From positions 4,640,001 to 4,704,000 of the forward strand of contig OZ251539.1 of the NCBI GenBank assembly GCA_965243135.1: 64,000 bases of DNA, given 5' to 3'. The translations under genes and the position numbers were made by a program. The stretch's first letter is position 1, and each line of letters opens with the position of its first letter. The stretch comes from Alphaproteobacteria bacterium (GTDB lineage: Bacteria > Pseudomonadota > Alphaproteobacteria > MPNO01 > UBA830). Shown in pieces: positions 9,558 to 47,963 of this stretch. The notes beneath the pieces are model-generated. The model saw only the letters and a list, made by a program, of their open reading frames with translations, ran no database searches and was not told where the DNA came from.

Positions 9558-9558
9558 A

Positions 9559-9819
9559 ATGACGATCAGAAAGACGATAGACCAGAAACGCGAGCGCGGC
9601 GGGGAGACGCCGAAATATTACGAGGTCTTCGCGCGCAGGAATTCCGGATCCGACCTTTCCCATGTCGGATCGGTGGAGGCGCCGAACGACGATCTCGCGA
9701 AAGTTCGCGCCTGGTACATCTACGATCAGCACCAGTGGCGCGAGATGTGCATCGTGCCGCTCGACGCGATCGTTACCGTCACCGAAGAAGGCAAATCCGC
9801 CAAAATCAAGATGGGATGA
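9559..9819 (+). CDS. PaaB-like epoxidase small subunit
   Basis: YEVFAR..HVGSVEAPNDDLA..A..Y..IVP matches the PaaB pattern. Confidence 0.8.
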   Translation: MTIRKTIDQKRERGGETPKYYEVFARRNSGSDLSHVGSVEAPNDDLAKVRAWYIYDQHQWREMCIVPLDAIVTVTEEGKSAKIKMG

Positions 9820-9835
9820 GCGGGGAAGCGGGAGA

Positions 9836-14498: not shown

Positions 14499-14499
14499 A

Positions 14500-14870
14500 C
14501 CGATTCGCCCACAATTCCGCCGATTCGCTCCCGCAGCGGGGATAACCCCGTTCTCCCGCCGAAGCAGCCGAAATCCCTCCCGTTCATTCAATGGATGCTC
14601 AGAGGTTATCATGGATTTCCAAGCAAGGCCACATGTAGCTGAAAAAAGGCGCCATGCACGGAATTCACAATTCCGCGGCTCCCTCTAAATTCAAACCCAT
14701 AAACGATTTTTCCGCGTTATGCACATGAACTTCCGCCCGTATCGCTCCTGAATTGTTTCGTGGATTATCTGTGAACGGAATTTTATCCTCATATTTCATG
14801 CATCAATCTAGATCGAACGAATCTATAAATTATAATTATTTAAATCAAATATATTGTTATTGAATGGAAT
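14500..14870. other. Probable chromosomal replication origin (oriC)
   Basis: Gap between divergent ppsR and hemE, the known oriC position in Caulobacter and many alphaproteobacteria. One-mismatch DnaA-box-like 9-mers TTATGCACA (14717-14725) and TTATCCTCA (14783-14791), two-mismatch CGTGGATTA (14759-14767), then an extremely AT-rich tract at about 14820-14863. Confidence 0.75.
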
Positions 14871-14887
14871 TCTGCCATACTAGGCTC

Positions 14888-19814: not shown

Positions 19815-20519
19815 TCAGGCAAGACGCGTGCGGAAAAGTTCCGAGGTGCGCGCATTGGCTTTCGCCGCCGCCGCTTCGTCGTAGTTCGCGCCGCCGGTTC
19901 TGGCGAACGCGTGATCGACGTCCGGGTAGGAATAAACCGTCACGAGTTCGTTCTTTCCGAGCTCCCGGCCGATCTTTTCCTGCGCTTCGGGCGGGCAGAA
20001 GTGGTCCTTTTCGGCGATATGCAGGATCAGGGGGTTGCGAATGCCCGAGGCGGCATCGAGCGAATTCTCGATCTGAACCGGGTAATAGCCGGACGCGGCA
20101 TCCACGTCCGTATGGCAAGCCGAAGCGTAGGCGAGACTGCCGCCGAGGCAGTATCCGACCGCGCCGACCTTGCCGGCGCAGCTTTGATGGGAGCGAACGG
20201 CCGAGACCGTCGCCTGGATATCGGCGACTCCTTGTTCGAACATAGGCAAAAAGGCGTTCATCAGTTCGAACGCCCGATCCCACTCCGCTTGCGTGCCGTC
20301 GGTCAGTTCGACCCCCGGTTCGATGCGCCAGAAAAGATCGGGACACGCGGCGACGTAGCCTTCGGCGGCCAAGCCGTCGCAGACTTCGCGCATGAAGCCG
20401 TTGACGCCGAAGATTTCCTGAAGGACTACGACGCCGGGGCCGGATCCGGATTCCGGCACTGCGCAGTAGGCGGAAAATTCGCCGCTGCCGTCCGTCGCGG
20501 GAATGGTCAGCTTGGACAT
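19815..20519 (-). CDS. Dienelactone hydrolase family protein
   Basis: QEIFGVN, GYCLGG nucleophile motif, HAFAR; start at ATG 20519. Confidence 0.9.
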   Translation of the reverse strand: MSKLTIPATDGSGEFSAYCAVPESGSGPGVVVLQEIFGVNGFMREVCDGLAAEGYVAACPDLFWRIEPGVELTDGTQAEWDRAFELMNAFLPMFEQGVADIQATVSAVRSHQSCAGKVGAVGYCLGGSLAYASACHTDVDAASGYYPVQIENSLDAASGIRNPLILHIAEKDHFCPPEAQEKIGRELGKNELVTVYSYPDVDHAFARTGGANYDEAAAAKANARTSELFRTRLA

Positions 20520-21203
20520 GTCGTTTTCCTTTCTGTCTTCGACTCCGTTTCGCCAGCGGAGGGATGCGGAAGAAAAGGTCGACCGCTCGCCTCGATGCCA
20601 CCGTCGGCGAACAACCACCGCGTCACGATAGCGGCTAGGTTGAAAAACGTCAAGAACGGTGCGCAAGGGGCCCCACGACGTTTCGCTTTCCGGGGCCGCC
20701 GAGCGCCATTGCCGCGAATTGAGAATTTTTCGTGGCGAGGCACTCTCCGGCAGTCAGGGAGCAAGAGGCCGAGGGCCTCCTCTCCTCAGAGATGACGAGA
20801 CGGGTCAGGCGCACCGCTCGGATCCGCGCCAGCTCGGCAAGACAGCGGACCACGAGGCCCGTTGCGCGAGCGCCATCACCGCTCCTTTCTGATGCGCGGC
20901 GCCGGTCGAGAGGGACAGCGGCAGCCTCGCCGTGGCGCTTGGAGGCGCCGGGCAGGCCGCCTCCGAAAGCCAACCCCGGAGCGCGACCGCGAACCGCGGC
21001 CGGAAGAGCGTCTGAATCCCGGCATTGGTTCCGTCGAACGAGAACGTTCCGCTTGATGCGCTCGCCCGGTTCGAACGAAGCGGCCTCCCGCCTCTTCGGA
21101 GAACGATTCTCGGGGCGGAAATTTCCTCCGAAGCCGTGGCCAACGATTTGCCGAATCGGCTCGCGAAGGCGAAATTCGGCGCAAAAAATACGGAAAGTCG
21201 CCG

Positions 21204-21776: not shown

Positions 21777-22595
21777 ATGGGAATCCGCGTGACGGAAGAG
21801 GAAACTCGCAAGTTTCATGAGGAAGGCGTCGTGCGGCTGCAGGGCGTCGTCGACGGCGAATGGCTCGACGTTCTGGCTGCAGGCTTCGAGGAAGCGGTCG
21901 CGTCGCCGAGCCCCCACGCCAAGAACTATTCGCCCGAAGGCGCTCCCCGCTATTTTACCGATCACCGGCTGTTCAACAGGTTCGGCGCGTTCCGGGAGTT
22001 TCTGTTCGAGGGACCTCTGGCGGAGATCGCCGCCGAAATCCTCGGGGCGTCGCGCATAGATCTCTACGACGAGCATCTCCTGATCAAGGAACCCGGGTCG
22101 CCGACGCCCACCTACTGGCATCACGACATGCCGTATTTTTCCATAGACGGTTACGATCTGGCGAGCGTCTGGTTTTCGCTGGATCCGGTCACCGAGGAGA
22201 CGGGCGCCCTGCGTTTCGCTCTGGGTTCTCACAAGTGGGGAAAACTCTACCGGCCGGTGAAGATCGGCCTCAACGAACCTGTCGAGACTTTCGACAGGGA
22301 CGATCTGGTGGAGGAGGTGCCCGACATCGACGGCAATCCCGGCGAGTATCCGACGGCGCTGATGGAAACCGACCCGGGCGACATCGTCGTTTTTCACGGA
22401 TGCGCGCTGCACGCTTCGGGACCCAACGCGCGCCCCGACGTGAGCCGGCGGGCGCTTTCCTATCGTTTTGCGGGAGACGATATTCGTTGGAGGAACCGGT
22501 CGGACAAGCCGCTGATATTCGACAGTTGTCTCGAGGATGGCGATCCGCTCAGCCTGATCGCGGATCAATGCCCGCGCGTATGGCCGAGAGCCTGA
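21777..22595 (+). CDS. Phytanoyl-CoA dioxygenase (PhyH) family Fe(II)/2-oxoglutarate oxygenase
   Basis: TYWHHD (HxD), VWFSLD, GSHKW, PGDIVVFHGCALHAS, RRA. Confidence 0.88.
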   Translation: MGIRVTEEETRKFHEEGVVRLQGVVDGEWLDVLAAGFEEAVASPSPHAKNYSPEGAPRYFTDHRLFNRFGAFREFLFEGPLAEIAAEILGASRIDLYDEHLLIKEPGSPTPTYWHHDMPYFSIDGYDLASVWFSLDPVTEETGALRFALGSHKWGKLYRPVKIGLNEPVETFDRDDLVEEVPDIDGNPGEYPTALMETDPGDIVVFHGCALHASGPNARPDVSRRALSYRFAGDDIRWRNRSDKPLIFDSCLEDGDPLSLIADQCPRVWPRA

Positions 22596-22807
22596 AACGC
22601 CCGCTGCGCGAAATCCGCGGAGAAACGCCCGCGAATCCCCGTCCCGGGAAATTCGAGCTGCCGTCGGAAGGAGAGGCGAAGACGGCTCGGAATTTCGCCG
22701 ATTTCCGTCGGGAGCGAGACGAGGTCCTGCGGCGACGTTGCGATAAAAGCGTGCGGCCTGGAACCTCCCGAACCCCCGGACGGGCGTCGATTCTCGCTCG
22801 CCGGGCG

Positions 22808-24298
22808 ATGGAACGACGCCACGGGATCCTGCGGGCCTTCGGGAAATTTTCGGGCCGGCGGGCAAGGGGAGTTCTTCTGGCCGCCGCGTTGTCCCTGGGA
22901 GTTTCCGGAAGCGTTGGTTGGGCTGCGGAAGGCAAGACCGGAAGAGGGTTCGGCGAGGGCGGGGGAACGGCTTCCGATTCGCGCGCGGCATCGTCCGAGG
23001 GACCGGCGGAACGCTACCTCGAAGCCGTATCGGCGTATCTGACGCAATTTTCAGGCCGGGTGTTGGGCGGCCTTTCCATGACCGGTTCGGTCACGGCCGC
23101 GAATCTCGGAGACGCGGTGGAAATCCTTTTCCCGGGCGTCGCGGTCGGCGGCGGTCGAATCCGGCTGGGCGACGTCGCGGCTCGCCCGAGGCCGTTGGAG
23201 GAACCTCTGTACGATGTCGATTTTTCATGGGACGGACGAGCGGGGATTTACGCGAACGGCGTCAGAACCGGTGCCATCGGCGTTGCCGATCCCCGGCTGA
23301 AGGGACGGTGGGATTCCGAGCTGAAGGCCCTCGTCCGGTTCGATGTCGAAACCGGACCGATCGTCTGGACGAAGGGAGCCGAAAGAGTCCTTTCGGCCAA
23401 GGCGTCGAGCGCGAACCGCAGGCTTCTCCCGAACGGGAAGGGAGGATGGGAAGAAGATTCGATCTTGCGCGTGACCGGCCTGGACCTGGGCGGACGGGAA
23501 GGAAACGGATACGCGAGAATAGGAGACGGAAGGATCGAACTCCGTCGAACGAGTTTCGATCCCGCGGCATGGTTGTTCTTTCCGGATGTCTTCGGGGTCT
23601 CGCGCGCGAGCGGCAAGACGAACGAAGCCGTCGCGGCGCTGGCCAGGGAACCGGAAACGGCCGGAGAAAGCCATGGCGAGATGCGGTTCGCCGACATCGA
23701 GATCGCGAACGACGACGGGATGCGGCTCGCGCTCGGGGAGTTGGCGCTCCGCGTGGATTACAAGGAAAATACGGGAAGCTTTTTCGTCGATATCGGCGCC
23801 CCGCGCGTGCCGGGAACGCCGTTTCGTTTCCTGCCGGAACGCGTTGCCGCGGAGGTCGAAGTCCTCGGATTTCCGTTGAAAAGGCTCTTCGCGGAGATGG
23901 GCGACGAGCGGTTTTGGAGAGCCCATGGCGAGGATGCGCTTGTCGAAGCGGGACGCCGGTTTTGGTCCCGCGCGGGACGGGATTCGGAATTCCGCATTTC
24001 CGGATTCAAGGTTGGACTTCCGCCCGCGGAAGCGAACGCGCATGGAACGTTGCGGCCGGACGGCGCGGGCTGGGTCGTCGGCGAGCTCCGCGTCCGAATA
24101 ACCGGCCTGGACGAATACCTCGGAGCGCTGCCGAAGTCCGAGTCGCCTGCGGCCATGATGGTTGTCGCGCCCCTCAAGGGTCTGGGCCGGCCGGTCGCCG
24201 GGAAAGATGGACGCATCGCTTATGCGTACGATATCGACTTTTCTCCCGGCGGACTGATCTCCGTCAACGGAATGCCGCTGGCTCCTCTGGCCGAATAG
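22808..24298 (+). CDS. Hypothetical exported protein
   Basis: Signal-peptide-like RRARGVLLAAALSLGVSGSVGWA then beta-rich sequence ending ISVNGMPL; no family recognised; start uncertain. Confidence 0.6.
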   Translation: MERRHGILRAFGKFSGRRARGVLLAAALSLGVSGSVGWAAEGKTGRGFGEGGGTASDSRAASSEGPAERYLEAVSAYLTQFSGRVLGGLSMTGSVTAANLGDAVEILFPGVAVGGGRIRLGDVAARPRPLEEPLYDVDFSWDGRAGIYANGVRTGAIGVADPRLKGRWDSELKALVRFDVETGPIVWTKGAERVLSAKASSANRRLLPNGKGGWEEDSILRVTGLDLGGREGNGYARIGDGRIELRRTSFDPAAWLFFPDVFGVSRASGKTNEAVAALAREPETAGESHGEMRFADIEIANDDGMRLALGELALRVDYKENTGSFFVDIGAPRVPGTPFRFLPERVAAEVEVLGFPLKRLFAEMGDERFWRAHGEDALVEAGRRFWSRAGRDSEFRISGFKVGLPPAEANAHGTLRPDGAGWVVGELRVRITGLDEYLGALPKSESPAAMMVVAPLKGLGRPVAGKDGRIAYAYDIDFSPGGLISVNGMPLAPLAE

Positions 24299-31745: not shown

Positions 31746-32201
31746 ATGACGGGCCGTCTGGAACGCGGCCTGCGCGCGGTCTGCGCGGCGGCGCTTCTCG
31801 CGCTGTTCGCGCTCGTCGTCGCGCAGGTCGCGCTCCGATACGGTTTCGGCTACACGCCGTTCTTCACGGAAGAGGTGGCCCGCTACATGCTCGTCTGGTC
31901 GGTGCTGGCGGGCGCCGCGGCGTCGGTCGACGCCCATATCCGGGTTCCGTTCGTGCCGGATCTTCTGAGGCCCGCCGCGCGGCGGGCCTGGATGCTGGCG
32001 CTGGACGTCGCGACGCTCCTGCTGCTGGCCGTGTTGACCTTCGCCGCGGTTCGGTCGTTCGAGTTCGCCGCCGGCCAGACCAGCGACGGGCTCCAGATCC
32101 CGCTTCAGTACCCTTACGCGGTTCTCCCGCTCGCTTTCGGGGCGGCGCTGCTTCTTCTCGCCGTCCGCCTCAAACGCGGATTCAGGAAGGAGCGGGAGTG
32201 A
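31746..32201 (+). CDS. TRAP transporter small permease (DctQ family)
   Basis: QVALRY, EEVARY, HIRV, four TM segments. Confidence 0.88.
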   Translation: MTGRLERGLRAVCAAALLALFALVVAQVALRYGFGYTPFFTEEVARYMLVWSVLAGAAASVDAHIRVPFVPDLLRPAARRAWMLALDVATLLLLAVLTFAAVRSFEFAAGQTSDGLQIPLQYPYAVLPLAFGAALLLLAVRLKRGFRKERE

Positions 32202-34089: not shown

Positions 34090-34540
34090 CGGGTACGCCC
34101 ACGTCTGCTCGATACGGATCGCCCGTCCCGCGGAGACCGTTCTGGCGTTTCTGAGCGCGCCCGAGCTGTTGTCGAGCTGGGCGGCGGGCATGGGGCGCGC
34201 AAAGATCCACGACGATGGGCTTGTCGAGGGCGCGTTTCCGGATACGGGCGAACCGATCTGGGCGCGGATCGACGCGGATCCGAAGCGCAATGCGATTCAT
34301 TACCATCTCGGCCCGGAACCCTCGTCTCTGGCGCCGCGAATCGAGATACGAATCGTTCCCGGACCGGTCCTGGAGTCCGATGCCGACTCCTGCGTCGTCT
34401 CGATGATCGCGTGGCGGCAGAACGGCATGGACGACGTTCGTTGGCGAAGCCTCAAATCCGGCCACGAAGCCGAAATCCTCGAAATCAAGAGGCTGATCGA
34501 AAGCCAAAAATACCGGGTACAAAAAGGGTGCTTCTGCTAG
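34082..34540 (+). CDS. SRPBCC/START-like hypothetical protein
   Basis: SIRIARPAETVLAFLSAPELLSSWA N-terminus and C-terminal helix EILEIKRLIES; last codons run into AT-rich DNA. Confidence 0.65.
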   Translation: MDDGYAHVCSIRIARPAETVLAFLSAPELLSSWAAGMGRAKIHDDGLVEGAFPDTGEPIWARIDADPKRNAIHYHLGPEPSSLAPRIEIRIVPGPVLESDADSCVVSMIAWRQNGMDDVRWRSLKSGHEAEILEIKRLIESQKYRVQKGCFC

Positions 34541-34610
34541 TGGAGCTGCTAGAAATAAAAGTACCCCATCCATGGGAACAAACGATCTATTGCTCACCTG
34601 ACCATGCTTC

Positions 34611-34640
34611 TTGACAGTACCATCGAGACCGTGCTATGAA
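34611..34640 (+). promoter_or_regulatory. Putative sigma70 promoter of the low-GC insert
   Basis: TTGACA-18 bp-TATGAA with an extended -10 TG. Confidence 0.45.
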
Positions 34641-34697
34641 CATTCAAGTAATCCATTTTGAGGAAATTCTGACTGAATTTTCGCACGACAAATTTGG

Positions 34698-36188
34698 ATG
34701 TTATGGTATCCTGAATGGATTAGGGATGAGGATCAAGAAATCATGAAGGATCAAACATATCAATTGTTGCATAATTTTTCCAACTTTGTCGCAGTTGGCG
34801 ATTGTTGGGATGCTGCGCGAGAATTAATGGCTACGCATCAGATAATTGAGGTTTCTGAGACCGAAGAATTTATTTTAGGAATCAAGAAATTATCAGAAAT
34901 TGCGAGAAAAGGTGATGACATTGATCGTCTCATTGCAATCGATCTAATCGTTCGCATTTCTAAATTTGTAAAAAAATTGCGCCCGAAATCGGAGGAAGCG
35001 CTTCGTCAAATTCTAACGGATAATATACCGCCTTCTTCATTGTTATCAAACACAAAAAAAATCCCAGAGGGAGCGAAGCCAGCAGAACTACGCGAGAATT
35101 TGGCAATAGCGCTGAGCTATGCATCAGGAAATTGGGTCGTTCCATATGTTGTGCGTTCCTTGTTGGAGGAAGATCGTTCACAAAGATGTCGTATGGAATT
35201 AGCTCGCCAACTAGCCACACGAGAAAAATCTATTGACAAATGGTTGCTTTCAGTAATTAATTTTCTTATGAAAGGCGTAAACGAAAAGGAAAGAAATGTC
35301 GAAATCGCCGTGACAAGACTGCGCGATACTACAACAGCGCTTCTTGGTGCCGCGAGAGAAAACCGGAATAATCTCGGGATATCGGGAAACTCCGGCGTTA
35401 ATTTTTCTAAGATGTGTTCCCTTTTCACGCCAAATTCGTCGTTTGCTAAACGCCCAAAATCTCTAGAGTCTTGTTCAATTGAAGTAGCGCGCTTTCTGGA
35501 TGAAATATTTGCTAATAAACTCATGCTTATCGTGGAACCAGAAGCGTACTCTGTGTTGGATATAATTCAAAAATGGTGGCAACCACTTTCTTATCCACAA
35601 CGATTGCGAAATGCATTAGATCCAATAAAGGATAAAATACTTACTGGTATCACATTAAGAGCCCGCTGGGGGCAGAAATCTGATAAGCTTCGATCTCGTC
35701 TCGGACAGGCATATGGCGATCAACGGTTAGCATTTAATCGTCTTGAACAAATTGCAACGGAGGAAACAGGTCTTCCTTCAGATATTGATGATTGGTTGAG
35801 GGGGCGTCGTCGAAAGACGAGCGGCGTAGAAAATGCGACTCTCGCTCTTCAATCAGTGGAAGAAGATAGTTTAATTGATGCTTTTGCACCGCTGCTTCTT
35901 GAAGCGGAAGTCGTACTGAAATCTAGACTCGATCCTTCGTTGTCTAATGAAAATCGAACCAGTCTTCGACTCGCAGAAAATGTAAGATCTTTGGCGATAA
36001 GACATGGATTAGAAGTTGTTGGAGAACGAGATGAAATAGTGGAATATCTGCCAGTATGTCATCAGACTTCTTCGGGTGAAATACCACCGGATCCGTCTGT
36101 TAAAATCGTTCGTCCCATGGTGGTGCGCAAGCGATACGATGGAAGTGAAGACGTTGTTGTTAAGGCAATTGTAACCGCGGTATCATGA
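34698..36188 (+). CDS. Low-GC hypothetical helical protein with C-terminal GrpE-like region
   Basis: 496 aa, AT-rich codons. Tail HGLEVVGERDEIVEYLPVCHQ..SVKIVRPMV..DVVVKAIV resembles GrpE GxxFDPxxHxA..VxxG..LRxAxV. Start could be 34743. Confidence 0.7.
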   Translation: MLWYPEWIRDEDQEIMKDQTYQLLHNFSNFVAVGDCWDAARELMATHQIIEVSETEEFILGIKKLSEIARKGDDIDRLIAIDLIVRISKFVKKLRPKSEEALRQILTDNIPPSSLLSNTKKIPEGAKPAELRENLAIALSYASGNWVVPYVVRSLLEEDRSQRCRMELARQLATREKSIDKWLLSVINFLMKGVNEKERNVEIAVTRLRDTTTALLGAARENRNNLGISGNSGVNFSKMCSLFTPNSSFAKRPKSLESCSIEVARFLDEIFANKLMLIVEPEAYSVLDIIQKWWQPLSYPQRLRNALDPIKDKILTGITLRARWGQKSDKLRSRLGQAYGDQRLAFNRLEQIATEETGLPSDIDDWLRGRRRKTSGVENATLALQSVEEDSLIDAFAPLLLEAEVVLKSRLDPSLSNENRTSLRLAENVRSLAIRHGLEVVGERDEIVEYLPVCHQTSSGEIPPDPSVKIVRPMVVRKRYDGSEDVVVKAIVTAVS

Positions 36189-36220
36189 TGCCAACGCGCT
36201 AACCGAAAAAGGGGGTGTCC

Positions 36221-37008
36221 ATGGAAAATATGATCGGGTTGGATAGGCCAGCGCTTCTTTCAAGTGTACTAGATGAACGGTCAAGAAACCCCTTAGGTTG
36301 CGGCGTGATCAGGTAGTGTCTTTTTTCGAGTCGTTGCCGTATGTGGCGATGGAGACCTGCGTCAGCGCTCATCACTGGGGTCGGCGTCTGAGAGATACGA
36401 GGTAGAACTTTTCCGGCCCAGATCCTTACCTCAAATAGAACAAGAACGACGCACTGACAGCGAGGCGGTACAACGCCCGCAATTGCCGTCCCGAGGAGCA
36501 AGGACGTACACGGCGTGCTGTCGTTTCACAGGACGCCGAAAATGTTGGCTAAGTAGGGTGCCTAGAACTCCGACGAGTGCGCGGAGTTCGGCGTGGTCGC
36601 ATTCCAGAACTGTGCCGATGTGAACCAGCCGGTTCATCCGGGACGACAGCCTGCTGCCTGAAGAAGCTCGCTTGGCGACGTCGGTCAACCTTTTCGATCA
36701 GATCTGGAAGACCGCCGAGATGCAGGAGGCTCCGCGGAGTTGCACAGCGAGTTAGGCGACAATTCGAAAAAACTCCAGACGTCAGCGTGGCCACCGCGCT
36801 GACGGCATCGCTCGGGCTAGTGCCGCGGCAGAACGGTCCCGGTTCACCGTATCTGAAGGTGCTCATGGAAACAGTGAACTAGGTCGCCGTGGCGATTGCC
36901 AACCGAAACGTACGAATCGCTCGGGTGATGGTCCACAGCGTCCAATCTTATAGACCAAGGATTGCCGAGTCTCCAACCATACAGGCGCAGGCCGAAGTTC
37001 ACCCGTAA
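36221..37008 (+). pseudogene. Degenerate IS110-family transposase relic
   Basis: Fragments in shifting frames: MIGLD, VAMETCVSAHHWGRRL, YEVELFP, KNDA, ASLGLVPRQ, VAVAIANRNVRIARV, in IS110 order; multiple stops and deletions. Confidence 0.8.
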
Positions 37009-37090
37009 GTTGCATCCGAAAAATGCTTGCAACCCGTGGACGTCCATGCAAGTATGTGATGCATCCATTGAATCAGCAGAGGCGATAACC

Positions 37091-38671
37091 ATGCCGGATA
37101 TTAATCGCGCGGCTTTTGATATTCTGGGACCAAACGAGGACGAATTAAGAATTTGTTTGGATTTTGGTACTGCCATGTCGAAAGCATGGGCATCAAGATA
37201 TTCTGATGACAGTACCATACCCCTTGTATTGGGAAGGGCGGCCGGCGAGGGTAATGAGTTGGCGGTCCCTTCGTCTATATTTATTTCTCAATCTGGAAAG
37301 ATTTTCTTTGGAAGGCAAGCGGAAATTCAACATAGAAAGGAAATAGGAAATCGGCGCCGAAGATTTGATAACTTGAAATCAGTTCTTTGCGAATCAAAAG
37401 TTGATCGAGAACTTGACGAGATAGGAGTATCGCGAGAAATTGATCCAACGGGTTCTCTTACAATAGGTGGTTTGTTAACTCTATATATTGCTTGGTTAAC
37501 TGATCTTTCTCTTGTAGAATTGGAACGGCAGATACATGCAGCAAATGAACCCAACTCTAGCGGACAAAATCCGAACAATCTTCGCTATGTTCGTAGGAGA
37601 TTTGCTATCCCATGCTTTGAAAATTCTTATGACGAATCTGTTGGTGGGGATCGACGGGCTCGATGGGCAAGAAAAATAATGAGGAAAGCATTGCTTCGGG
37701 CTCAAATTATCGCCGATACATTGAATGGGCATTGGGACGATCTAACAGTATACGATGCTTTGAGATTATTTGAAACCGTCCGGGGCATGGAAATTTCTAG
37801 GTGTGATCGATTGCTAGCAAGGGACGCCTCAGTTCGGGAGCCAGTTGCTGCAGGAGCATCGCGATTTGAAGAAATGATTACCGAAGGTAAGGCTAGGAGG
37901 ATGCTGCTAGTAATCGATGCGGGCGCAGGGACCACGGATTTTGCTATTTTTCAGGTTTTTTCTGATCAAGAAACGCGGTACGCATTAATTTCATCCGGGG
38001 TTTCTATGTGTCTAATTGCAGGAAATAGAGTCGATCAGGTTTTAATGGAAGTCATTCTTGATGAATGTGGCGTTGATTTAGCTCAAAATAACAAGGAGGA
38101 TAGAGAATCTTTCAAATGGGAACTGGAATCAAATCTCCGAAACATAAAGCAAATCCTGTTTCAGGAAAAGCGAGCAAGAATAGATTTTTTGTCAGATGTC
38201 ACGGGGGAATTGCATATTGACACTCTTCTCGAAGATCATAGATATATGAAATTAGGAGAGGAATTGTGCACAATCCGCGATAGGCTAATTGATGACCTTT
38301 TTCGAAAAAATCCTAAAGAATTGGATGATCTAAAAAAGCATATGCAAATGCTAAGTAAACCGTTTCCTATACATGTATTGCTGACGGGAGGTAGTGGTGA
38401 GCAGCCAATAATAAAAGATTTAGCCAAAGGTCATATTGTAGTTGACGGATTAAATATTGAATTTAAGGAGGTTCGGGCTCTGCCAAATTGGATCAATGAT
38501 CTACAGCGTGATCAGGCGGAATTAGTTGCTAGGGCATATCCGCAATGTGCGGTCTCTATAGGTGGTTCGGCTCGCGAAGTTCCCCAAGAACGAAACGATT
38601 TAGTTTCCATGGTGAATCCCGCAGCGCCAGGAGAGAGACGACTTGAAGGCAATTACATGAAGGGCGTATAA
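37091..38671 (+). CDS. Divergent Hsp70/actin-fold ATPase (nucleotide-binding domain only)
   Basis: ICLDFGTAMSK, VPSSIF, REPVAAG, VIDAGAGTTD, AGNRVD, VLLTGGSG, AVSIGG; only about 35 aa follow the last motif; low GC. Start placed at ATG 37091. Confidence 0.8.
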   Translation: MPDINRAAFDILGPNEDELRICLDFGTAMSKAWASRYSDDSTIPLVLGRAAGEGNELAVPSSIFISQSGKIFFGRQAEIQHRKEIGNRRRRFDNLKSVLCESKVDRELDEIGVSREIDPTGSLTIGGLLTLYIAWLTDLSLVELERQIHAANEPNSSGQNPNNLRYVRRRFAIPCFENSYDESVGGDRRARWARKIMRKALLRAQIIADTLNGHWDDLTVYDALRLFETVRGMEISRCDRLLARDASVREPVAAGASRFEEMITEGKARRMLLVIDAGAGTTDFAIFQVFSDQETRYALISSGVSMCLIAGNRVDQVLMEVILDECGVDLAQNNKEDRESFKWELESNLRNIKQILFQEKRARIDFLSDVTGELHIDTLLEDHRYMKLGEELCTIRDRLIDDLFRKNPKELDDLKKHMQMLSKPFPIHVLLTGGSGEQPIIKDLAKGHIVVDGLNIEFKEVRALPNWINDLQRDQAELVARAYPQCAVSIGGSAREVPQERNDLVSMVNPAAPGERRLEGNYMKGV

Positions 38672-38775
38672 AGTATTAGTCAGGGAACAAGGCTGTTGGC
38701 CGGACTGCTTCACTCGGGATGGGCGGGAGAGCTTGTTGTTGCAATGACTTCCAATCGCGAGACCTTGGAACAAAG

Positions 38776-40032
38776 TCAGTCCGCAGCGTCGGCGAGACCG
38801 ACGAGCGTTTCAGCGAGTACCCGTGCCCCGTCCGCGAGATCTTCCGGCGCGGCATTTTCCGCTTCGTTGTGACTGATGCCTTTCTCGCAGGGGACGAATA
38901 TCATCCCGGTCGGGCACACGAAATGCAGTTGGCGCGCATCGTGCCCCGCTCCGGAGAACATTCGCATGGCCGGGAGGCCGAGACGGTCGGCGGCGGCCTC
39001 GACGGCGTCCACCACCAGCGGTTCGAACTCGATGGAATCCGCCTCGGCGATGCGCCATGCCTCGACGTCGCACGCAACCGACCGGTCGCGGCAGATCCCG
39101 TCGACTTCCGAGGCGAGCCGTTCGAGCAGCGCCGAATCGGGGTGGCGAATGTCGATCGAAAACACGGCGCCGCTCGCCACCACGGAGGGCACGTTGGGCT
39201 CGGGCAGCATCATGCCTACGGTGAACCGCACGTCTTCGTCGGCATGAAGCTGGTCGTGCAGGGCGGACACCATGCGGGCGGCCTCCCAGAGAGCGTCCTT
39301 GCGCGCCGCGCGCGGGGTCGTTCCTGCGTGCGCTTCCTCTCCCGTCACCCTGACGCGCATTCGCCTTACGCCTTGAATGCCGGTCACGATGCCGATGGTC
39401 TTTCCCAGCCTTTCGAGTTCCGGCCCCTGCTCGATATGGGCTTCGACGAACGCGGCGACAGGGCGGCCGAGCGGAAGTTCCCCGGCATCCGGCGTTGCGG
39501 CTAGCGCCGCCGGCAGCGCGTCGCGGACGGGCGTGCCGTCCCGATCCCTTACCGTGAGGATCTCCTCCATGCCGCGCAACCCGGCGAAGGCTTCGGAGCC
39601 CATCATGCCCGGCGCGAAACGCGACCCTTCCTCGTTCATCCAGGCGGCGACCTCGATGGACCGCCGGGTCGCGACGCCCGCGTCGTTCAGGGCTTCGACC
39701 GCTTCGATCCCGGCGAGCACGCCGTATGCGCCGTCGAACTTGCCGCCGGTCGGCTGGCTGTCGATATGCGACCCGGTCATGACGGGCGGCAAGCCGGGGT
39801 CGCTGCCGTCCCGCCGCAGGAACAGGTTGCCTGCCGCGTCGACGAAAACGCCGAGGCCGAGTTCCGCGGCCCAGGAGGCCAGTCGGCCTCGCGCCTCGAT
39901 TTCTTCCGTGGAAAGCGCCTGCCGGTTGACGCCGCCCTTTCCGGTCGCGCCGAACTGCGCGAGCTCCATATGACGCCGCCACAGACGGGCCTCGTCGACG
40001 AAGCCGGAGACGATGCGCGGGCTTTCCGGCAC
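38776..40032 (-). CDS. M20 Zn-dependent amidohydrolase (N-carbamoyl-amino-acid/allantoate amidohydrolase type)
   Basis: GSHIDSQPTGGKFDG, NEEGSRF, EAHIEQGP, HAGTTP, SGAGHDA, GISHNEAE. Confidence 0.92.
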   Translation of the reverse strand: MPESPRIVSGFVDEARLWRRHMELAQFGATGKGGVNRQALSTEEIEARGRLASWAAELGLGVFVDAAGNLFLRRDGSDPGLPPVMTGSHIDSQPTGGKFDGAYGVLAGIEAVEALNDAGVATRRSIEVAAWMNEEGSRFAPGMMGSEAFAGLRGMEEILTVRDRDGTPVRDALPAALAATPDAGELPLGRPVAAFVEAHIEQGPELERLGKTIGIVTGIQGVRRMRVRVTGEEAHAGTTPRAARKDALWEAARMVSALHDQLHADEDVRFTVGMMLPEPNVPSVVASGAVFSIDIRHPDSALLERLASEVDGICRDRSVACDVEAWRIAEADSIEFEPLVVDAVEAAADRLGLPAMRMFSGAGHDARQLHFVCPTGMIFVPCEKGISHNEAENAAPEDLADGARVLAETLVGLADAAD

Positions 40033-41711: not shown

Positions 41712-42049
41712 GGCCTTCCGCTCCGCATCTTCGATACAGGCATTTTTCACTTTCCCCCGGAAGCCGTCCGAAAGCAACAGCGGGAAGAGGGAACCTTGCA
41801 GGGCCGCCCGGGCCGGCTTTCCGTCCCGCGCGACGTTCGGGCGCGGTTGGAACGGCCGGTAGTATTTTGCGACGATGGTGGCGGCCGAGCGGGAAAAAGC
41901 CGTATTGTGAACAAGGCCGTAACACTCGGAACCGTGAGGGATCGAACCGCAGTTTGGCGGTTATCTGCGGGCGATAGGGCAGTATTGTTGCCGTGCGGGT
42001 CGTCGGCACCGTCCTGCCGGGACCGAATGAGCACGCGGAGGAGAAACGG

Positions 42050-43288
42050 ATGATCGAACTGGCTCGTCGCATTCGACTGGGCGAGGATTCGATGCTCAAG
42101 TTGAAGAGCGTTCGCTCGATGGCGGGCCGCGATACCGGTCCGCAACGTAGTGAATTCGCGGACGAGCTGGCCGCCATGGCCAACGGCCGGGGCGGCACTC
42201 TGGTCCTCGGCGTGGACGACGACACTCGTCGGATCGAAGGCATTCCGCTTGCCGAGCTTGACGCGGTCGAAGGCTGGGTCCGCGAAATTTGCGACGACTT
42301 CGTGAAACCCGCGCTCGATGTCGACATTTTGAAACAGGAACTGAAAGACGGCAGCGGAGAACTCGTCCCGATTATTGTCGTGGAGACCCCTCGGAGCCTG
42401 TTCGTGCACGAGAGTCCCGGCGGATACTTCCGCAGGATCGGCGGCTCGAAGCGCAAGATGGAGCCGGAGGCTCTCGCCCGTCTGTTTCAGGAGCGGAGCC
42501 AGACCCGGCAGATCCGCTTCGACGAATTGATCGTGCCCGGCACCGGTCCGTCCGACTTGCAGTATTCGCTGACGCACCGGTTCATGCGATCAAACGAAGG
42601 ACTTCCCGCCAATTCCCGCTTCTCCGGCGAAGTTCTCGATACATTGCGGAAGCTTTGCATCGTGGCCGACGAGGATGGACAAGCGCGGCTTACGCTCTCG
42701 GGCGCGCTTCTTTGCACAGCGGAACCGCAGCGGTGGCTGCGCCACGCGTACATTCAGGCCGTCAACTACGCAGGCGACCGGATCGACACCAAGTACCAAA
42801 CCGACGCAAGGGATATCGGCGGACCTCTGGACGAGCAGGTGGCCGGAACACTGGACTTCGTGCGGCGCAACATGCTGGTGCGCGCCGCCAAGACAAACGC
42901 GCGGATGGACCGCCCGCAGTTCAGCGAGCGCGCCGTGTTCGAGGCGCTTGTGAACGCGGTCGCGCATCGCGACTACTCGCTGGCGGGCGCTCGGATTCGC
43001 CTCCACATGTTCGGCGACCGGCTTGAGCTCTACGTTCCCGGCGGGTTGGCCAGCACGCTTGCCCCGGACAGCCTCCATCTGCGGCAGTCGAACCGGAACA
43101 ACGTTATCGTGTCCCTGCTTGCCCGATGCGCCGCGCCATCCGGGATCGGGCGCATGCGTCTGATGGACGTACGCGGCGACGGAGTGCCGATCATTCGCGC
43201 AGAGTGCGAAAAATTGTCGGGGAGATTGCCGGAGTACAGACTGATCGACGAAAACGAGCTGCGACTCGTAATTCCGGCCGCTGGATAG
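42050..43288 (+). CDS. AlbA_2 (Schlafen-like) + HATPase_c_4 protein
   Basis: GEDSMLKLK, ELAAMANGRGGTLVLGVDD, YFRRIGGS, FEALVNAVAHRDYS, RNNVI, RGDGVPII. Confidence 0.85.
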   Translation: MIELARRIRLGEDSMLKLKSVRSMAGRDTGPQRSEFADELAAMANGRGGTLVLGVDDDTRRIEGIPLAELDAVEGWVREICDDFVKPALDVDILKQELKDGSGELVPIIVVETPRSLFVHESPGGYFRRIGGSKRKMEPEALARLFQERSQTRQIRFDELIVPGTGPSDLQYSLTHRFMRSNEGLPANSRFSGEVLDTLRKLCIVADEDGQARLTLSGALLCTAEPQRWLRHAYIQAVNYAGDRIDTKYQTDARDIGGPLDEQVAGTLDFVRRNMLVRAAKTNARMDRPQFSERAVFEALVNAVAHRDYSLAGARIRLHMFGDRLELYVPGGLASTLAPDSLHLRQSNRNNVIVSLLARCAAPSGIGRMRLMDVRGDGVPIIRAECEKLSGRLPEYRLIDENELRLVIPAAG

Positions 43289-43305
43289 TCCGTTCACCGG
43301 CGGCC

Positions 43306-43987
43306 GTCTGGAAGCAAATCGTCTGCCTCGCGAACTCCCGAAAGCGGTCGGGTCGTTACGTTGCGGGCCGCGAATGGTCGGAGACGGACGGCGCGGGGGC
43401 ATGGGTCCGACCCGTCAGCAAGCGGGACGGCCAGGAAGTATCGGAACACGAGCAGCGGTACGAGGACGGTGCCGACCCGCGGTTGCTCGACATTATCGGC
43501 TTGCCTCTTCTGAAAGCCTGCCCTGAAGATTGGCAGACCGAAAACTGGTTGCTCGATCCGGAACGGTACTGGCAGAAGAACGGAAAATACTCGCGCTTCG
43601 ATCTGGCGAAGCTCGCCGACGCGCTTGAACCGCTCTGGATCGACGGGTACGGCACCTAATAACGGCCAAAACGACAAGGTTCCGCTCGGGCTGATCTCGT
43701 CGATTTCCGATTCGCTGCGGCTGATCAGGGTCGAGCGGCTTGAACTGGCCGTGTTCAGCTCGGGCGAGGCGTTCGGCAACGCCAAGCGGCGCGTGCAGGG
43801 GCGCTTCGAATTTTCGGGCCAGGAGTACGCGTTATGGGTGACGGATCCTGCCTGCGAAAAGAAGTACTTTGCTAAGCTGGACGGCACCTATGCGACAGGC
43901 GGGAGCTATCTGACGATCAGCCTTGGAGAGGGGTATAAGGGCGCTTGCTACAAGCTCGTTGCCGCCGTCATCGGGGTGGATGAATAA
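43306..43987 (+). pseudogene. Dual OB-fold family protein, frameshifted near 43657
   Basis: N-half KQIVCLANSRKRSGRYVAG..WVRPVS..LLDII..QTENW..LWIDG stops at TAA 43657-43659; C-half NGQNDKV..SLRLI..VTDP..YLTISLGE..YKLVAAVI continues in the +1 frame. No nearby start codon seen. Confidence 0.7.
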
Positions 43988-44609
43988 AGATATGGAAAAC
44001 AGCGTTCTTACTATCGGCCACTCCAATCATTCTTGGGAAGCCTTCGCGGCTCTCCTCGAACTGCACGGCATCGGGGCCGTGGCGGATGTGCGCTCGGCAC
44101 CGTACAGCCGCTTCAACCCGCAGTTTGATCGCGAAACCTTCGCGGCCGCTCTCAAGGGGCGAGGCATAGCTTACGTCTATCTCGGGAGCGAACTCGGCGG
44201 CCGCTCCGAAGATCCTGGATGTTACGAGGGCGGCCGCATCCGTTATGACCGCATCGCGCTGACGGATCGTTTCCGGGACGGTATCGAACGCGTGGTTCGA
44301 GGGGCCGGAAAACACCGCATCGCTCTCATGTGCGCAGAGAAAGAGCCTCTCGATTGCCACCGAACCCTTCTCGTCGCGCCCGCTCTTGAACGGGAGGGTA
44401 TAGACGTCATGCATGTTCACGCGGACGGCGTTCTTGAACCGAATGCCGAAGCGATGGACGGGTTGCTGGATAAATTCGACCTCCGCCCGGACGGCGATCT
44501 GTTCCAGCGGTCCCGCGAGGAGTTGGTCGCGGAAGCGATAGCGCTGCAAGCCAGGCGCGTCGCCCATGCTGACGACAGACCTGCGGGAGGGCGGGAGCGA
44601 AGCCGATGA
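43980..44609 (+). CDS. DUF488 family protein
   Basis: LTIGHSNH, ADVRSAPYSR, ELGGR, ALMCAEKEPLDCHR. Confidence 0.88.
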   Translation: MNKDMENSVLTIGHSNHSWEAFAALLELHGIGAVADVRSAPYSRFNPQFDRETFAAALKGRGIAYVYLGSELGGRSEDPGCYEGGRIRYDRIALTDRFRDGIERVVRGAGKHRIALMCAEKEPLDCHRTLLVAPALEREGIDVMHVHADGVLEPNAEAMDGLLDKFDLRPDGDLFQRSREELVAEAIALQARRVAHADDRPAGGRERSR

Positions 44610-45094
44610 GAGTGCTGACCATAGGATTCACGAAGAAGCCGGCGCAGCGGTTTTTCGGGCTGCTGCGCGAGTCCGGCGCCAGAAGAGTTGTCGACGTGAG
44701 GCTCAACACCGGATCGCAACTCGCCGGGTTCGCGAAAAAGCGGGATCTCGCGTGGTTCCTCGAAGAAATTTGCGGGATCGAATACGTCCATGCGCCGGAT
44801 CTGGCGCCTTCGAAGGAACTGCAGGACGACTACCGGAAGAAGAGGATCGACTGGAGCGCTTACGAAGACCGGTTTGTGGATCTGATGCGCGAACGGCGGA
44901 TCGAGGATACGGTTTCGAAGGAGATGGTGGACAGCGGCTGCCTGCTGTGCAGCGAGGATCAGCCCCATCATTGTCACCGGCGGCTGGTTGCCGAATATCT
45001 GACGACTTGTTGGGGCAATATCGAGGTCGAGCATTTGGGAATGTCGGGACCCGACGCGCGGTGGCCGCAGCCCGGGAAACCTCTTTCGGAGTAG
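44606..45094 (+). CDS. DUF488 family protein (second paralog type)
   Basis: TIGFTKK, VDVRLN..QLAGFAK, LAPS, CLLCSE..HCHRRLVAEYL; ATGA coupling. Confidence 0.88.
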   Translation: MRVLTIGFTKKPAQRFFGLLRESGARRVVDVRLNTGSQLAGFAKKRDLAWFLEEICGIEYVHAPDLAPSKELQDDYRKKRIDWSAYEDRFVDLMRERRIEDTVSKEMVDSGCLLCSEDQPHHCHRRLVAEYLTTCWGNIEVEHLGMSGPDARWPQPGKPLSE

Positions 45095-45386
45095 CGGGTC
45101 GTCCGGAAAGGAAGCGTTTCCTGCCGAGCTTCTCCGCAAATTATCTGTGTCGGCCTCAAATCGCGTGTGGTTTCTTCGTGACCGGGCGGGCTGGTTGAGC
45201 GGTATTTCGGCTGAAGCTTGCCGGATGCGGGGCGGAGACGCGGTTGCCGCATTCCGCCGAGATCTGCGGCAAGCTGTTTGCTCCTGCGAAACGCGACTAT
45301 AATGCAGGCGTGCGGAAAGGCGCGGCGGCGGACCTCGCGCCTCGGCATGATCAAGCACTGCTAAGGGTGCCAAACGGGTATCTGAC

Positions 45387-46553
45387 ATGGATTCGTCCAC
45401 TCGTCCGCTTTTTGCACTGTATGTGATTTGGCACCCTACATTTGCGTTTGGTCGAGAGATCGCGGATCGGCTCCGGTCGCATTTTGTCCGCAATCTCTAC
45501 AAGACCGTTGGCGGAGATAATGGGGTGAGCGTTCTTGAGCGCAGCGAACCTTTGCCGGGTAAGCGCACGCCTTTGCCGATCGACTGGGACGAAGCGGAGA
45601 TGACGGCAGCCGTTGTGATCGCGGAGTCCGGGCTCGTCGATGATCGCGATTGGACCGACTACATCCGCAGCGTCTCCCGAAGCGCGAGGACGAGAGGGGA
45701 TTCCGCCGGTTTCTTTCCCGTCACGGTGGATTCCCGCGGAACCGAGTTCGGGTTCGAGGAACAGGCGCTGCGCTGGGACCGCTGGGGCGAACCCGACGCT
45801 GAGCGATGTCGACGCATGACCATCGACCTGACCCACGAGTTTTGCCGTATGCTGCGACACCAGCTCGGGCGACCAGACAGCGGGCAGATGCCGCTCGAAC
45901 AGCGTCTGGAGAAGATCCAGATTTTCATCAGCCACACCAAGCATGACGACGATGGCGAAATCGTGGCTCGCGGCATCCGCGACTGGATCCATGAACGCAG
46001 TCCGCTTTCGAGCTTCTTTGATGTCCACGATATTCCGCCTGGGCAGTCGGTCGAGGAGGTCTTGCTGCATCAGCTTGGCAAAGGAGCGGTCATGGTGGTG
46101 CACTCCGATTCCTATTCGTCGCGCGAATGGTGTCGTCGCGAGGTAATTGAGGCAAAGCGTCGCTTGGTGCCGATGGTCGTTGTCGATTGCGTGCGCGATA
46201 TCGATTTCCGCGGAATGCCGTATCTCGGCAACGTACCGATCATCCGCATGGATCCGGACCGGAGAGATCGGATAGAGACCGTTGCAGGTTGCCTCCTCGA
46301 CGAAGTCTTCCGCACTTGGTTGTGGCTTTATCGCATTGAGCGTTATCGGGCAGAGGCTTCCGGCGTATTGTTTACGGCTCGACCGCCCGAATTGATTGTC
46401 TTGGCGGCGATGTCTTTTCGTCGCGGAGAAGTCGACCCAGTGATCGTCTATCCTGATCCCCTGTTGAGCGCCGAGGAAGGACATTTGTTCTCGAAGGTTG
46501 CTCCAAACGTGCGCGTTCAAACTTTGACGGAATGGCTGGAGGAACGACAATGA
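45387..46553 (+). CDS. TIR-domain protein (N-terminal TIR-like region + TIR + C-terminal extension)
   Basis: IFISHTKHD, FFDVHDIPPG, SDSYSSREWCRREV with the presumed catalytic Glu, PYLGNVP. Confidence 0.85.
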   Translation: MDSSTRPLFALYVIWHPTFAFGREIADRLRSHFVRNLYKTVGGDNGVSVLERSEPLPGKRTPLPIDWDEAEMTAAVVIAESGLVDDRDWTDYIRSVSRSARTRGDSAGFFPVTVDSRGTEFGFEEQALRWDRWGEPDAERCRRMTIDLTHEFCRMLRHQLGRPDSGQMPLEQRLEKIQIFISHTKHDDDGEIVARGIRDWIHERSPLSSFFDVHDIPPGQSVEEVLLHQLGKGAVMVVHSDSYSSREWCRREVIEAKRRLVPMVVVDCVRDIDFRGMPYLGNVPIIRMDPDRRDRIETVAGCLLDEVFRTWLWLYRIERYRAEASGVLFTARPPELIVLAAMSFRRGEVDPVIVYPDPLLSAEEGHLFSKVAPNVRVQTLTEWLEERQ

Positions 46554-47383
46554 CTCCAAGCAATGCACCATCCGCCATCGGAATTTCGATTTCAGAGAGT
46601 CCCGACATGCAGGCGCTCGGGTTAAGCGATGGCCACTTGCGCGACGCCATGGCCGAGGTCGCGCTGCACTTGCTTGCCTCGGGAAGGAGCCTAGCCTATG
46701 GCGGAGATTTACGGCGCCATGGATTCACCGAGCTTTTGTTCGAGCTGGTCGGACGCTATCGAAACCATCCGCGACATCGCGGCACGATATCCGTAACCGA
46801 TTATCTGGCTTGGCCCGTTCATATTAAAATGACCTCGAACGAGCTCGCTGCGTTCGCCGCCGAACACGATGCGGCTGTTTCTCTCGTTTTCCTTGCGCGA
46901 GACGGCGTGCGCCTCGAACGGGAACAGCGAATGAGGCTTTCTGAACGCGAACCGGATGACGACGAGTGGACGGAAGGACTAACGTCCATGCGGACCGCCA
47001 TGCGCCGAGAAATTCAGGCTCGAGTAGTGTTGGGCGGCAGGGTCGAGGGCTACAAGGGAACCATGCCGGGGATCGCCGAAGAGGCCTATCTTTCTCTCGA
47101 AGCCAGTCAGCCGATCTTCCTGCTTGGCGGTTTCGGCGGGTGCGCCCGCGACATTGCCGAGACAATCGGGCTTGTCGACCGTTGGGCCGGCTCTAGGGGC
47201 GATTGGGACGGTCGCGGTCGCTTTCGTTCGTATTCCCCGAACGAACTCCGCAACGGCTTGTCCCGGGAGGAGAACGTCGTTCTCGCACGGACGCCGCACA
47301 TCCAGGAGGCGGTCGCCTTGGTATTGCGAGGCCTCCGCCGGATCCTCAGCTGGAGAGATAGCGATGCACAAGGTATTCATTAG
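46550..47383 (+). CDS. SLOG superfamily protein (TIR-associated, SLOG cluster 2-like)
   Basis: IGISISES, LAYGGDLR, LTSMR, ARVVLGG..G.MPGIAEE, FLLGGFGG; ATGA overlap with the TIR gene. Confidence 0.8.
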   Translation: MTPSNAPSAIGISISESPDMQALGLSDGHLRDAMAEVALHLLASGRSLAYGGDLRRHGFTELLFELVGRYRNHPRHRGTISVTDYLAWPVHIKMTSNELAAFAAEHDAAVSLVFLARDGVRLEREQRMRLSEREPDDDEWTEGLTSMRTAMRREIQARVVLGGRVEGYKGTMPGIAEEAYLSLEASQPIFLLGGFGGCARDIAETIGLVDRWAGSRGDWDGRGRFRSYSPNELRNGLSREENVVLARTPHIQEAVALVLRGLRRILSWRDSDAQGIH

Positions 47384-47963
47384 TTATCACCATGAGAGGG
47401 ATCAGGGGTACAAGGATTCCTTGATCGAGTTTGGCGTGAAGAATTCCGTATTCGTGGACAGGTCTGTCGATCCTGGCGACATTTCGGAGGAATTGAGCGA
47501 CGAGCGGATCCGTCACATAATCAGAGACAAGTATCTTAGGGATTCCACGGTTACCATTGTGTTGGTTGGAAAAGAGACGAAACACCGGAAACACGTCGAC
47601 TGGGAGATTCACACCAGCATGTACGACGGGACCGCGAGCAGAAGATCGGGAATAGTGGTCATCAACCTGCCGGGAACCTCCGATTACTTTGGCGCTCCTT
47701 ATGGAGAGGCCGAGAAAAAACTCTTGTATCCAGACGTTACGAACTGGATGAGTATAGATTCACGAGCGGAGTACGAACGCAGATATCCCTACATGCCTGA
47801 TCGCATCGTGGACAATCTCGTGAAATCCGACGTAAAAATTTCGGTCGTTCCTTGGGGCAGGCTAAATGCGGAAAGACTCGAATTTCTGATAGAAGCGGCC
47901 TTTAGCAATCGTTTTGAGTGCGGATACGATCTGAGCAGACGAATGAGGCGGGCAAACTCGTAA
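47364..47963 (+). CDS. ThsB-like TIR protein (MTH538/DUF1863 type)
   Basis: MHKVFISYHH..DQ, IRDKYLRDSTVTIVLVGKET..RKHVDWEI; overlaps the SLOG gene by 20 nt. Confidence 0.87.
   Translation: MHKVFISYHHERDQGYKDSLIEFGVKNSVFVDRSVDPGDISEELSDERIRHIIRDKYLRDSTVTIVLVGKETKHRKHVDWEIHTSMYDGTASRRSGIVVINLPGTSDYFGAPYGEAEKKLLYPDVTNWMSIDSRAEYERRYPYMPDRIVDNLVKSDVKISVVPWGRLNAERLEFLIEAAFSNRFECGYDLSRRMRRANS

Follow-up and report, generated by a model that had tools for sequence, protein, structure and literature searches.

What might an Hsp70-type ATPase and a protein with a GrpE-like tail do when they are encoded side by side on a low-GC island of an alphaproteobacterial genome? This question is raised by two genes on the + strand of a 64,000-nt stretch of contig OZ251539.1, the whole of which is called the window below. 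The genes are gene A (34698..36188) and, downstream of it, gene B (37091..38671). A preliminary description of this DNA had presented them as a candidate two-gene system and had not recognised it as a named one. The latter point did not survive, as both proteins match PADLOC models of the same anti-phage candidate, PDC-M61, and by these sequence matches the pair is a member of this catalogued and uncharacterised system. The explanation that we favour, and that we consider reasonably probable as a whole, is that the PDC-M61 pair forms a partner-gated switch of the Hsp70 type with a function that is most likely anti-phage. In the literature searched, the fold-level reading, that is an Hsp70 nucleotide-binding domain (NBD) with a cofactor composed of armadillo-like (ARM) repeats and a GrpE-like module, appears to be undescribed. 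Also new here are the remnant of an IS110-family insertion sequence (IS) in the gap between the genes, a gene B without its N-terminal segment, and a second, intact pair elsewhere in the genome.

Folds and family of the two proteins

Three PDC-M61A models of PADLOC match gene A (PDLC04727 at 1.6e-24, PDLC04728 at 4.1e-21 and PDLC04730 at 3e-16), and the PDC-M61B model PDLC04731 matches gene B at 5e-80, the latter over profile positions 118-573 of 588 only. In addition to matching both hidden Markov models, the two genes follow each other on the + strand, and the gap of 902 nt that separates them contains no intact gene. At E <= 0.001 we found 196 homologues of gene B and 56 of gene A (35-78% identity), and the gene A family amounts to 508 clusters at this threshold among 1.84 billion representatives. 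Because of these numbers of homologues and clusters, the feature is far beyond chance. Nearly all full-length members of the gene A family are of about 480 aa.

The start of gene B is likely the ATG at 37091, which gives the 526-aa form found in the protein collection, rather than the TTG at 36962, where a longer open reading frame (ORF) ending at 38671 opens. The preliminary description had listed five ATPase motifs in this protein, and all of them are present in the translation in the order claimed (CLDFGTAMS, REPVAAGAS, DAGAGTTD, LLTGGS, AVSIGGS). Its view of the protein as Hsp70-like and reduced to the NBD is borne out by the structure model, which has a predicted local distance difference test (pLDDT) value of 88.4 and a predicted template modelling score of 0.89. 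All matches shown for this model among the 49 best in Foldseek are Hsp70 proteins, with DnaK (4b9q_A) at 3.5e-13, and the profile of gene B searched against PDB finds the NBDs of BiP and DnaK at E about 5e-3. Of the 526 residues, approximately 350 can be aligned with the Hsp70 NBD, and the other ~175 form helical insertions and tails; the C-terminal tail of ~35 aa is conserved, predicted to be disordered, and of low confidence in the model. As modelled, the protein has the NBD fold with the phosphate-1, phosphate-2 and adenosine motifs, no substrate-binding domain (SBD) or lid is seen in it, and its structural matches are limited to the NBD of full-length chains. None of the 7997 candidates scored was a fused or longer form of gene B, which is weak evidence.

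The profile alignment to BiP pairs the phosphate-2 motif DAGAGTTD with DLGGGTFD and the adenosine motif LLTGGS with LVGGS, and also covers the AGN..D and K..L helices. The residues that are at least 90% identical among 61 sequences of the family are D24, G26, T27, K96, E250, D276, G278, G280, T281, D283, T432, G433, G434, G491 and G492. We take the conserved residues to correspond to Asp, Lys, Glu and Thr in the catalytic site of Hsp70 (the BiP alignment covers lobe II). Because of this correspondence, gene B likely encodes an active ATPase, as far as can be judged from its sequence.

Gene A encodes 496 aa from its first ATG, or 481 aa if translation starts at M16 (34743) as in the genome's own call, and it belongs to no family in Pfam or NCBIfam. 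Its AlphaFold 2 model (pLDDT 91.4, from an alignment of 52 sequences) consists of an alpha-solenoid of ARM/HEAT-like repeats at residues 6-367 (34713..35798, + strand) and a GrpE-like module at residues 378-494 (35829..36179, + strand), with a low-confidence linker at residues 374-387 between solenoid and tail. The module is predicted to comprise two helices (378-411 and 417-435) followed by a compact beta domain (438-494), which is the arrangement of paired helices and beta domain of the GrpE fold. The preliminary description had proposed a helical protein with a GrpE-like end; the fold stands, and the extent has to be corrected from the last 90 aa to ~110-120 aa. Among the 50 structure matches listed for gene A, the C-terminal part is covered solely by three independent GrpE representatives, and the matches to the solenoid are generic (importins and designed ARM proteins). 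In ESM-Atlas the nearest named cluster to residues 376-496 is GrpE with a score of 0.85, which we treat as a lead only. When gene A was aligned by hhalign with 30 proteobacterial GrpE sequences (E 0.018), the conserved G..VEY.P..H of gene A was paired with the G..FDP..H region of GrpE, which agrees in register with the match between structures. The modelled tail has a GrpE fold and is probably a remote homologue of GrpE. Taken together, we are highly confident that the fold and family assignments of both genes are correct, and they provide PDC-M61 with a testable mechanism and with residues to mutate.

Pairing across relatives and the split copy in the window

We collected loci with relatives of gene B, taking one genome per species, which resulted in 80 loci from Alpha-, Beta- and Gammaproteobacteria and a few others. 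A homologue of gene A is located directly upstream of gene B on the same strand in 72 of the 80, so the two genes do co-occur, almost without exception, as the preliminary description would have it. Three loci have an A-like gene downstream of B in the opposite orientation, and no A is found in five, one of which is at a contig edge. Where B begins at profile position <= 5, which is the case in 67 loci, the distance from the stop of A to the projected start of B ranges from -8 to 50 nt with a median of 18 nt. There is no conserved third gene, the largest cluster of neighbours being present in 18 of the 80 loci. Some loci have unusual forms. In L013, a single ORF (9371-10585) joins profile positions 7-190 of A to 223-596 of B and looks like a deletion fusion; B is in several fragments in L059 and L074, and split in two in L005, L015 and L041. 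Three gammaproteobacterial metagenome-assembled genomes (L038, L039 and L040, about 11440-14879, - strand) share a variant arrangement, in which the A-like gene, downstream of B and oriented against it, matches profile positions 137-479 only and belongs to no Pfam family.

The neighbours of these pairs are often of defence type. Clusters of such neighbours are present in 34 of the 80 loci, where we counted NOV_C helicase, DUF1156 methylase, DUF499, BrxL, HsdR/M/S, TIR, GmrSD, AAA_15/21, WYL and NYN. For the remaining 46 loci, 145 of 151 candidate ORFs from 44 loci were scanned with PADLOC, and 19 further loci have a match at <= 1e-10 no more than two genes away from the pair; these matches include Dsr1, GajB, BrxA, BrxF, PglX, DndB, MkoA, PbeA and type III methylases. 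The total of 53/80 loci agrees with the defence-rich neighbourhood that the preliminary description had suggested looking for, and it is a raw count without a background rate. In 40 of 74 loci, the GC content of the pair is more than 0.03 below that of its flanks, two loci show the opposite, and gene B is found in two of 78 genomes of the host order. A tblastn search for relatives of B gave no match at 1e-20 in 72,556 plasmids and none at 1e-10 in 50,697 phage records. The pair family is horizontally mobile and is usually situated beside or inside defence loci.

The window copy departs from its relatives in two respects that had gone unnoticed in the preliminary description, namely a spacer of 902 nt (36189..37090, + strand) in the place of the short gap and a gene B lacking the N-terminal segment that is present in 67 of the 80 loci. 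The spacer has a higher GC content than the genes. A 42-aa frame in it (36277-36402) matches IS110 family transposase genes of plasmids (E 1e-6, 62% over 32 aa), and an annotated IS110 transposase from a Bosea plasmid (locus L118) aligns by tblastn to 36295-36546 (E 3e-11, 37% over 93 columns) and leaves a weak trace at 36799-36843 (E 0.058). The transposase reading frames are broken. Pfam found no family at E <= 10 in eight frames of the spacer, and it was not matched when the genome was scanned with PF01548 and PF02371; the IS110 identification comes solely from tblastn. Of an IS110 transposase, which has a DEDD domain at its N-terminus and a Transposase_20 domain at its C-terminus, the N-terminal part is recognisable and the C-terminal trace is weak. 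By this similarity, the spacer carries an old, decayed and broken IS110-family remnant and no intact element. Its DNA has no other copy in the genome and none in plasmids, and only a 41-nt match was seen in 26 genomes of the family. Broken copies of IS110 type are also present elsewhere in the genome (C1:332038-332712 and C1:1985852-1986521).

The N-terminal segment of B in the family is a helix of ~45 aa, the consensus of which is M....A...VRSL..RL...G....LP.GRLS..EV.AL; a variable linker comes after it. Among the 120 B homologues listed, just five have fewer than 30 residues ahead of the CLDFGT motif. The others that bear the motif have 57-143 residues ahead of it, and in 15, which are mostly short or partial, the motif was not found. 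A search with hmmsearch --max for profile positions 1-53 of B covered all frames of 36100-37400 and found nothing left of the segment. An ORF starting with MENMIGLD at 36221 was considered as a remnant of the segment and rejected; its motif is presumably that of the transposase, which is the more likely origin, though the ORF was unmatched by tblastn.

A second pair, in which gene A (G000:C1:1033281-1034765) and gene B (G000:C1:1034799-1036496) are intact and closely spaced, is located outside the window in the same genome (locus L117, 8284-11496). It lies in a low-GC islet (0.41-0.48) and its B has the N-terminal segment. Its PDC-M61 matches (A at 5e-84 and B at 7.9e-135) are stronger than those of the window copy. 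Thirteen genes neighbour this pair: PADLOC found no match in the seven that were scanned, and Pfam applied to all 13 found cyclophilin, MatE and Amdase domains only. The presence of an intact pair and of an IS-split pair with a short B in one genome offers a natural comparison, and it is the IS remnant and the short B, together with the second copy, that give the locus its value as a natural experiment.

Is the window copy then a decaying relic, in which the IS110 insertion cut B from the promoter of A and from translational coupling to it and removed the N-terminal segment, with the second pair being the one that works? The long gap, the missing trace of profile positions 1-53, the rarity of a short stretch ahead of CLDFGT and the better scores of the second pair all point in this direction, as do decayed pairs elsewhere, such as the deletion fusion of L013 and the fragmented genes of L059 and L074. 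However, both window ORFs (1.5 kb each) are open, and every residue that is invariant in the family is kept in the alignments of A and B although the IS is heavily decayed; because they are AT-rich, these ORFs are prone to stop codons. The closest relative pair (A 78% and B 69% identical) has the same short B, its gene B (P0004) beginning at the same position as that of the window, which suggests that the short form has persisted; for the closest relatives of A and of B the longest contig is listed with one and the same length, which suggests, without proving it, that they share a contig. Furthermore, near-identical contigs from four runs of three studies have the same arrangement of A, spacer and B, and bridge both the joint between the end of A and the spacer and that between the spacer and B. 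No joint that skips the spacer, as expected of an uninterrupted allele, was seen in these contigs, which show presence only. Among 10 runs, none is listed as an RNA data set that carries the locus. We regard decay as possible and rather unlikely, and likewise we doubt that the window copy is inactive. An IS110-family element, by now decayed, split the operon long ago. Because the short B is shared by the closest relative, the sequence suggests that this form may still work.

Proposed mechanism and competing explanations

GrpE binds the NBD of DnaK as its nucleotide-exchange factor. By analogy, A probably contacts B through its GrpE-like module. In the mechanism that we propose, A would be a dimer, probably held together through the GrpE-like helices, and its beta domain would dock on the NBD of B and control the release of ADP, as GrpE does for DnaK; B would therefore act as a partner-gated ATP/ADP switch and not as a chaperone. 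The solenoid of A would be a protein-binding surface, either for a cue from phage or cell or for the conserved terminal peptides of B. The output of the pair would most likely be anti-phage immunity, and for the PDC-M61 family as a whole we lean slightly towards a role as a defence system. Hsp70 and GrpE are textbook housekeeping partners. If the proposal is true, the logic by which chaperones exchange nucleotides has been turned to use as a molecular switch, probably an immune one.

A more specific version, which we offer tentatively and do not expect to hold in full, is a self-contained immune switch, in which an Hsp70 ATPase without SBD is restrained and nucleotide-reset by its ARM-GrpE cofactor until a phage cue frees the ATPase to arrest infection. 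The cue would either reach the solenoid or arise from interference with the host DnaK/GrpE axis, which many phages exploit. If true, this would be the first defence system with an Hsp70/exchange-factor pair as its core, with a GrpE-fold domain fused to a solenoid sensor.

Several observations weigh against the partner-gated switch as an account of the locus. The Pfam HSP70 model (PF00012) scores gene B at 11.5 bits compared to a cut-off of 20.6 (E 0.082). As to gene A, the sequence model of GrpE (PF01025) matches none of 52 family members at E <= 1, a profile search of PDB returns no GrpE at E <= 10, the hhalign probability of the alignment with GrpE is just 2.6%, and the whole model in Foldseek has weak matches to repeat proteins only and none to GrpE. 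No recognisable effector domain is present in either protein. The 902-nt gap and the lack of the N-terminal segment of B distinguish the window copy from most of its relatives, neither copy in the genome adjoins a known complete defence system, and 27 of the 80 loci showed no defence neighbour, again as a raw count without a background rate. Our literature search returned one preprint that names PDC-M61, an association study without a functional test, in the available text of which the system is negatively associated statistically with prophage number in Pseudomonas aeruginosa isolates. The search found no Hsp70/GrpE/exchange-factor pair in anti-phage defence and no description of the PDC-M61 folds. 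A complex prediction with full-length B and residues 376-496 of A, both given as alignments, resulted in a score of 0.01 (mark 0.32) and has no bearing either way.

The GrpE likeness of the tail could also be a convergence of fold, or a dimerisation module reused without exchange activity, in which case A would bind B by its solenoid, for example at the conserved N-terminal helix or C-terminal tail of B, much as ARM repeats bind peptides. A has no significant sequence similarity to GrpE, and here the structure matches to three GrpE proteins uphold the preliminary claim at the level of fold and not of sequence. Conservation is distributed evenly along A and is not concentrated in the tail. In addition, the N-terminal segment of B is conserved, as is its disordered C-terminal tail, and such helix or tail peptides are typical ligands of ARM-type solenoids. 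However, the three GrpE representatives are independent and are the sole matches to the tail among the 50 listed, hhalign aligns the G..VEY.P..H of A with the corresponding GrpE region, and the partner gene encodes exactly the domain to which GrpE binds. The window B, moreover, has no N-terminal helix and its frame is still intact. We consider this explanation unlikely and keep exchange through the GrpE-like module as the preferred one.

Another explanation makes the pair an accessory or regulatory module of DNA-modification systems (BREX-related type 1, type I restriction-modification or BREX) that has been orphaned here. DUF1156 methylases are neighbours in 10 loci, mostly immediately upstream, and DUF499 genes in nine, mostly immediately downstream. 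With the methylase upstream and DUF499 downstream, the pair therefore lies inside DUF1156/DUF499 operons, being situated between the two genes in about ten loci, and HsdR/M/S or BrxL flank it in other loci. According to the available text of PMC12839542, DUF1156 methylases and DUF499 proteins are components of BREX-related type-1 systems. Nevertheless, about 60 of the 80 loci are without these neighbours, the neighbour families are diverse, as would be expected of independent cargo of defence islands, and in PADLOC the pair is modelled as a separate system. Hsp70, GrpE and DnaK have no occurrence in the available text of PMC12839542. This makes an accessory role improbable.

The pair could also be chaperone-like and dedicated to one specific client, in a housekeeping or niche role that has nothing to do with phage defence. 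This would be in line with the origin of both folds in chaperone machinery and with the position of both copies in the genome amid metabolic or unknown genes, but it is very improbable given the very patchy distribution (two of 78 genomes of the order), the foreign composition, the defence-type neighbours in 53 of the 80 loci, the lack of an SBD in B, and a host that has its own canonical grpE. That gene (G000:C1:4728948-4729427; PF01025 at 1.1e-50) is located ~25 kb past the end of the window.

Surroundings and comparison with known systems

The pair occupies a low-GC foreign island of about 4.4 kb (34446..38803) that comprises gene A, the IS remnant and gene B only. Four other genomes of the genus are homologous to the window up to 34445 on the left and again from 38804 on the right, and all four lack the island. 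GC content along the island is 0.43-0.55 per kb, compared to about 0.65-0.69 in its flanks and about 0.65-0.70 in the window at large. Gene A has a GC content of 0.42 and a third-position GC content (GC3) of 0.33, and the longer ORF of gene B (36962-38671) has 0.43 and a GC3 of 0.35. These values, the absence from all four congeners and the rarity of B in the order fit what the preliminary description had said of two co-oriented low-GC genes of foreign composition. It had also been right that there is no J-domain gene, as Pfam finds no J domain in either protein and the island has no further gene. At the island borders, we found no flanking direct repeats except short chance-like pairs, and no tRNA adjoins them. 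Scans for promoters (7 found, 5.7 expected) and for terminators (7 found, 4.5 expected) were uninformative.

Both flanks are metabolic, with hydantoinase A/B, subunits of a TRAP transporter and a regulator with helix-turn-helix and cupin domains on the left, and an M20 peptidase, an alpha/beta hydrolase and a short-chain dehydrogenase on the right. Within the stretch coding for the TRAP genes, ARAGORN called a tRNA-Arg(cct) of 97 nt at 31981-32077, the unusual length of which suggests a false call or an intron-like insert. GC content dips to 0.53 at 14001-15000, a region of small ORFs upstream of the ferrochelatase gene. Two ORFs, of 812 aa (21860-24298) and of 294 aa (19911-20795), belong to no Pfam or PADLOC family.

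The defence-like cluster that had been pointed out nearby is indeed there (41993-47963), beginning 3.3 kb downstream of the island. It contains an AlbA_2/Schlafen protein with HATPase_c_4 (41993-43288), a truncated DuOB protein that matches the C-terminal half of PDC-M45A only (43625-43987), a DUF488 protein with a PDC-M45B match at 1.8e-77 (43923-44609), a TIR_2 protein (45387-46553) and a ThsB-like TIR protein (47124-47963). GC content is lower (0.55-0.57) at 46-48 kb, within this cluster.

Compared to other members of PDC-M61, the window pair has the gene order and protein sizes of 72 of the 80 related loci and differs by its IS110-remnant gap and its short B. With the DnaK-GrpE system, gene B shares the Hsp70 NBD fold and catalytic motifs, and the tail of gene A shares the helices and beta domain of GrpE. 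In contrast to DnaK, gene B has no SBD or lid and has ~175 extra residues, and gene A has a solenoid of 370 aa where GrpE has its long N-terminal helix; the pair is also below the Pfam cut-offs and has no J-domain partner, and the host keeps a grpE of its own. The ARM-type exchange factors of eukaryotes (HspBP1/Fes1 and Sil1) and Hsp110/Sse1 are functional analogies only, and no chain of HspBP1, Sil1 or Fes1 is among the 50 structure matches listed for gene A. Proteins of the YegD type (NF008673) are, likewise, members of the Hsp70 family reduced to the ATPase domain; this model is the best match of gene B in NCBIfam, a weak one of 21.1 bits compared to a cut-off of 331, and gene B is not a member.

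A parallel in combination of domains is found in the CoCoNuT systems. As described in the available text of PMC11090510, CnuD and CnuCD of type III CoCoNuT, which are related to McrBC and have a predicted role in immunity, contain an Hsp70-like NBD/SBD and HEAT-like repeats; CnuD has an SBD, degenerate ATPase motifs and McrB/McrC partners. The likeness to the window pair is the combination of an Hsp70-like ATPase with a HEAT-like helical repeat. By that description, the window pair is set apart by having no SBD, by conserved catalytic motifs and by the GrpE-like module, and no McrB-like GTPase or McrC (DUF2357) gene was found in the island or in those neighbour clusters of the 80 loci that were annotated. 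According to the available text of a preprint, Hsp70-like NTPase domains can replace STAND NTPases as switches in conflict systems, which is in keeping with the general idea of a switch.

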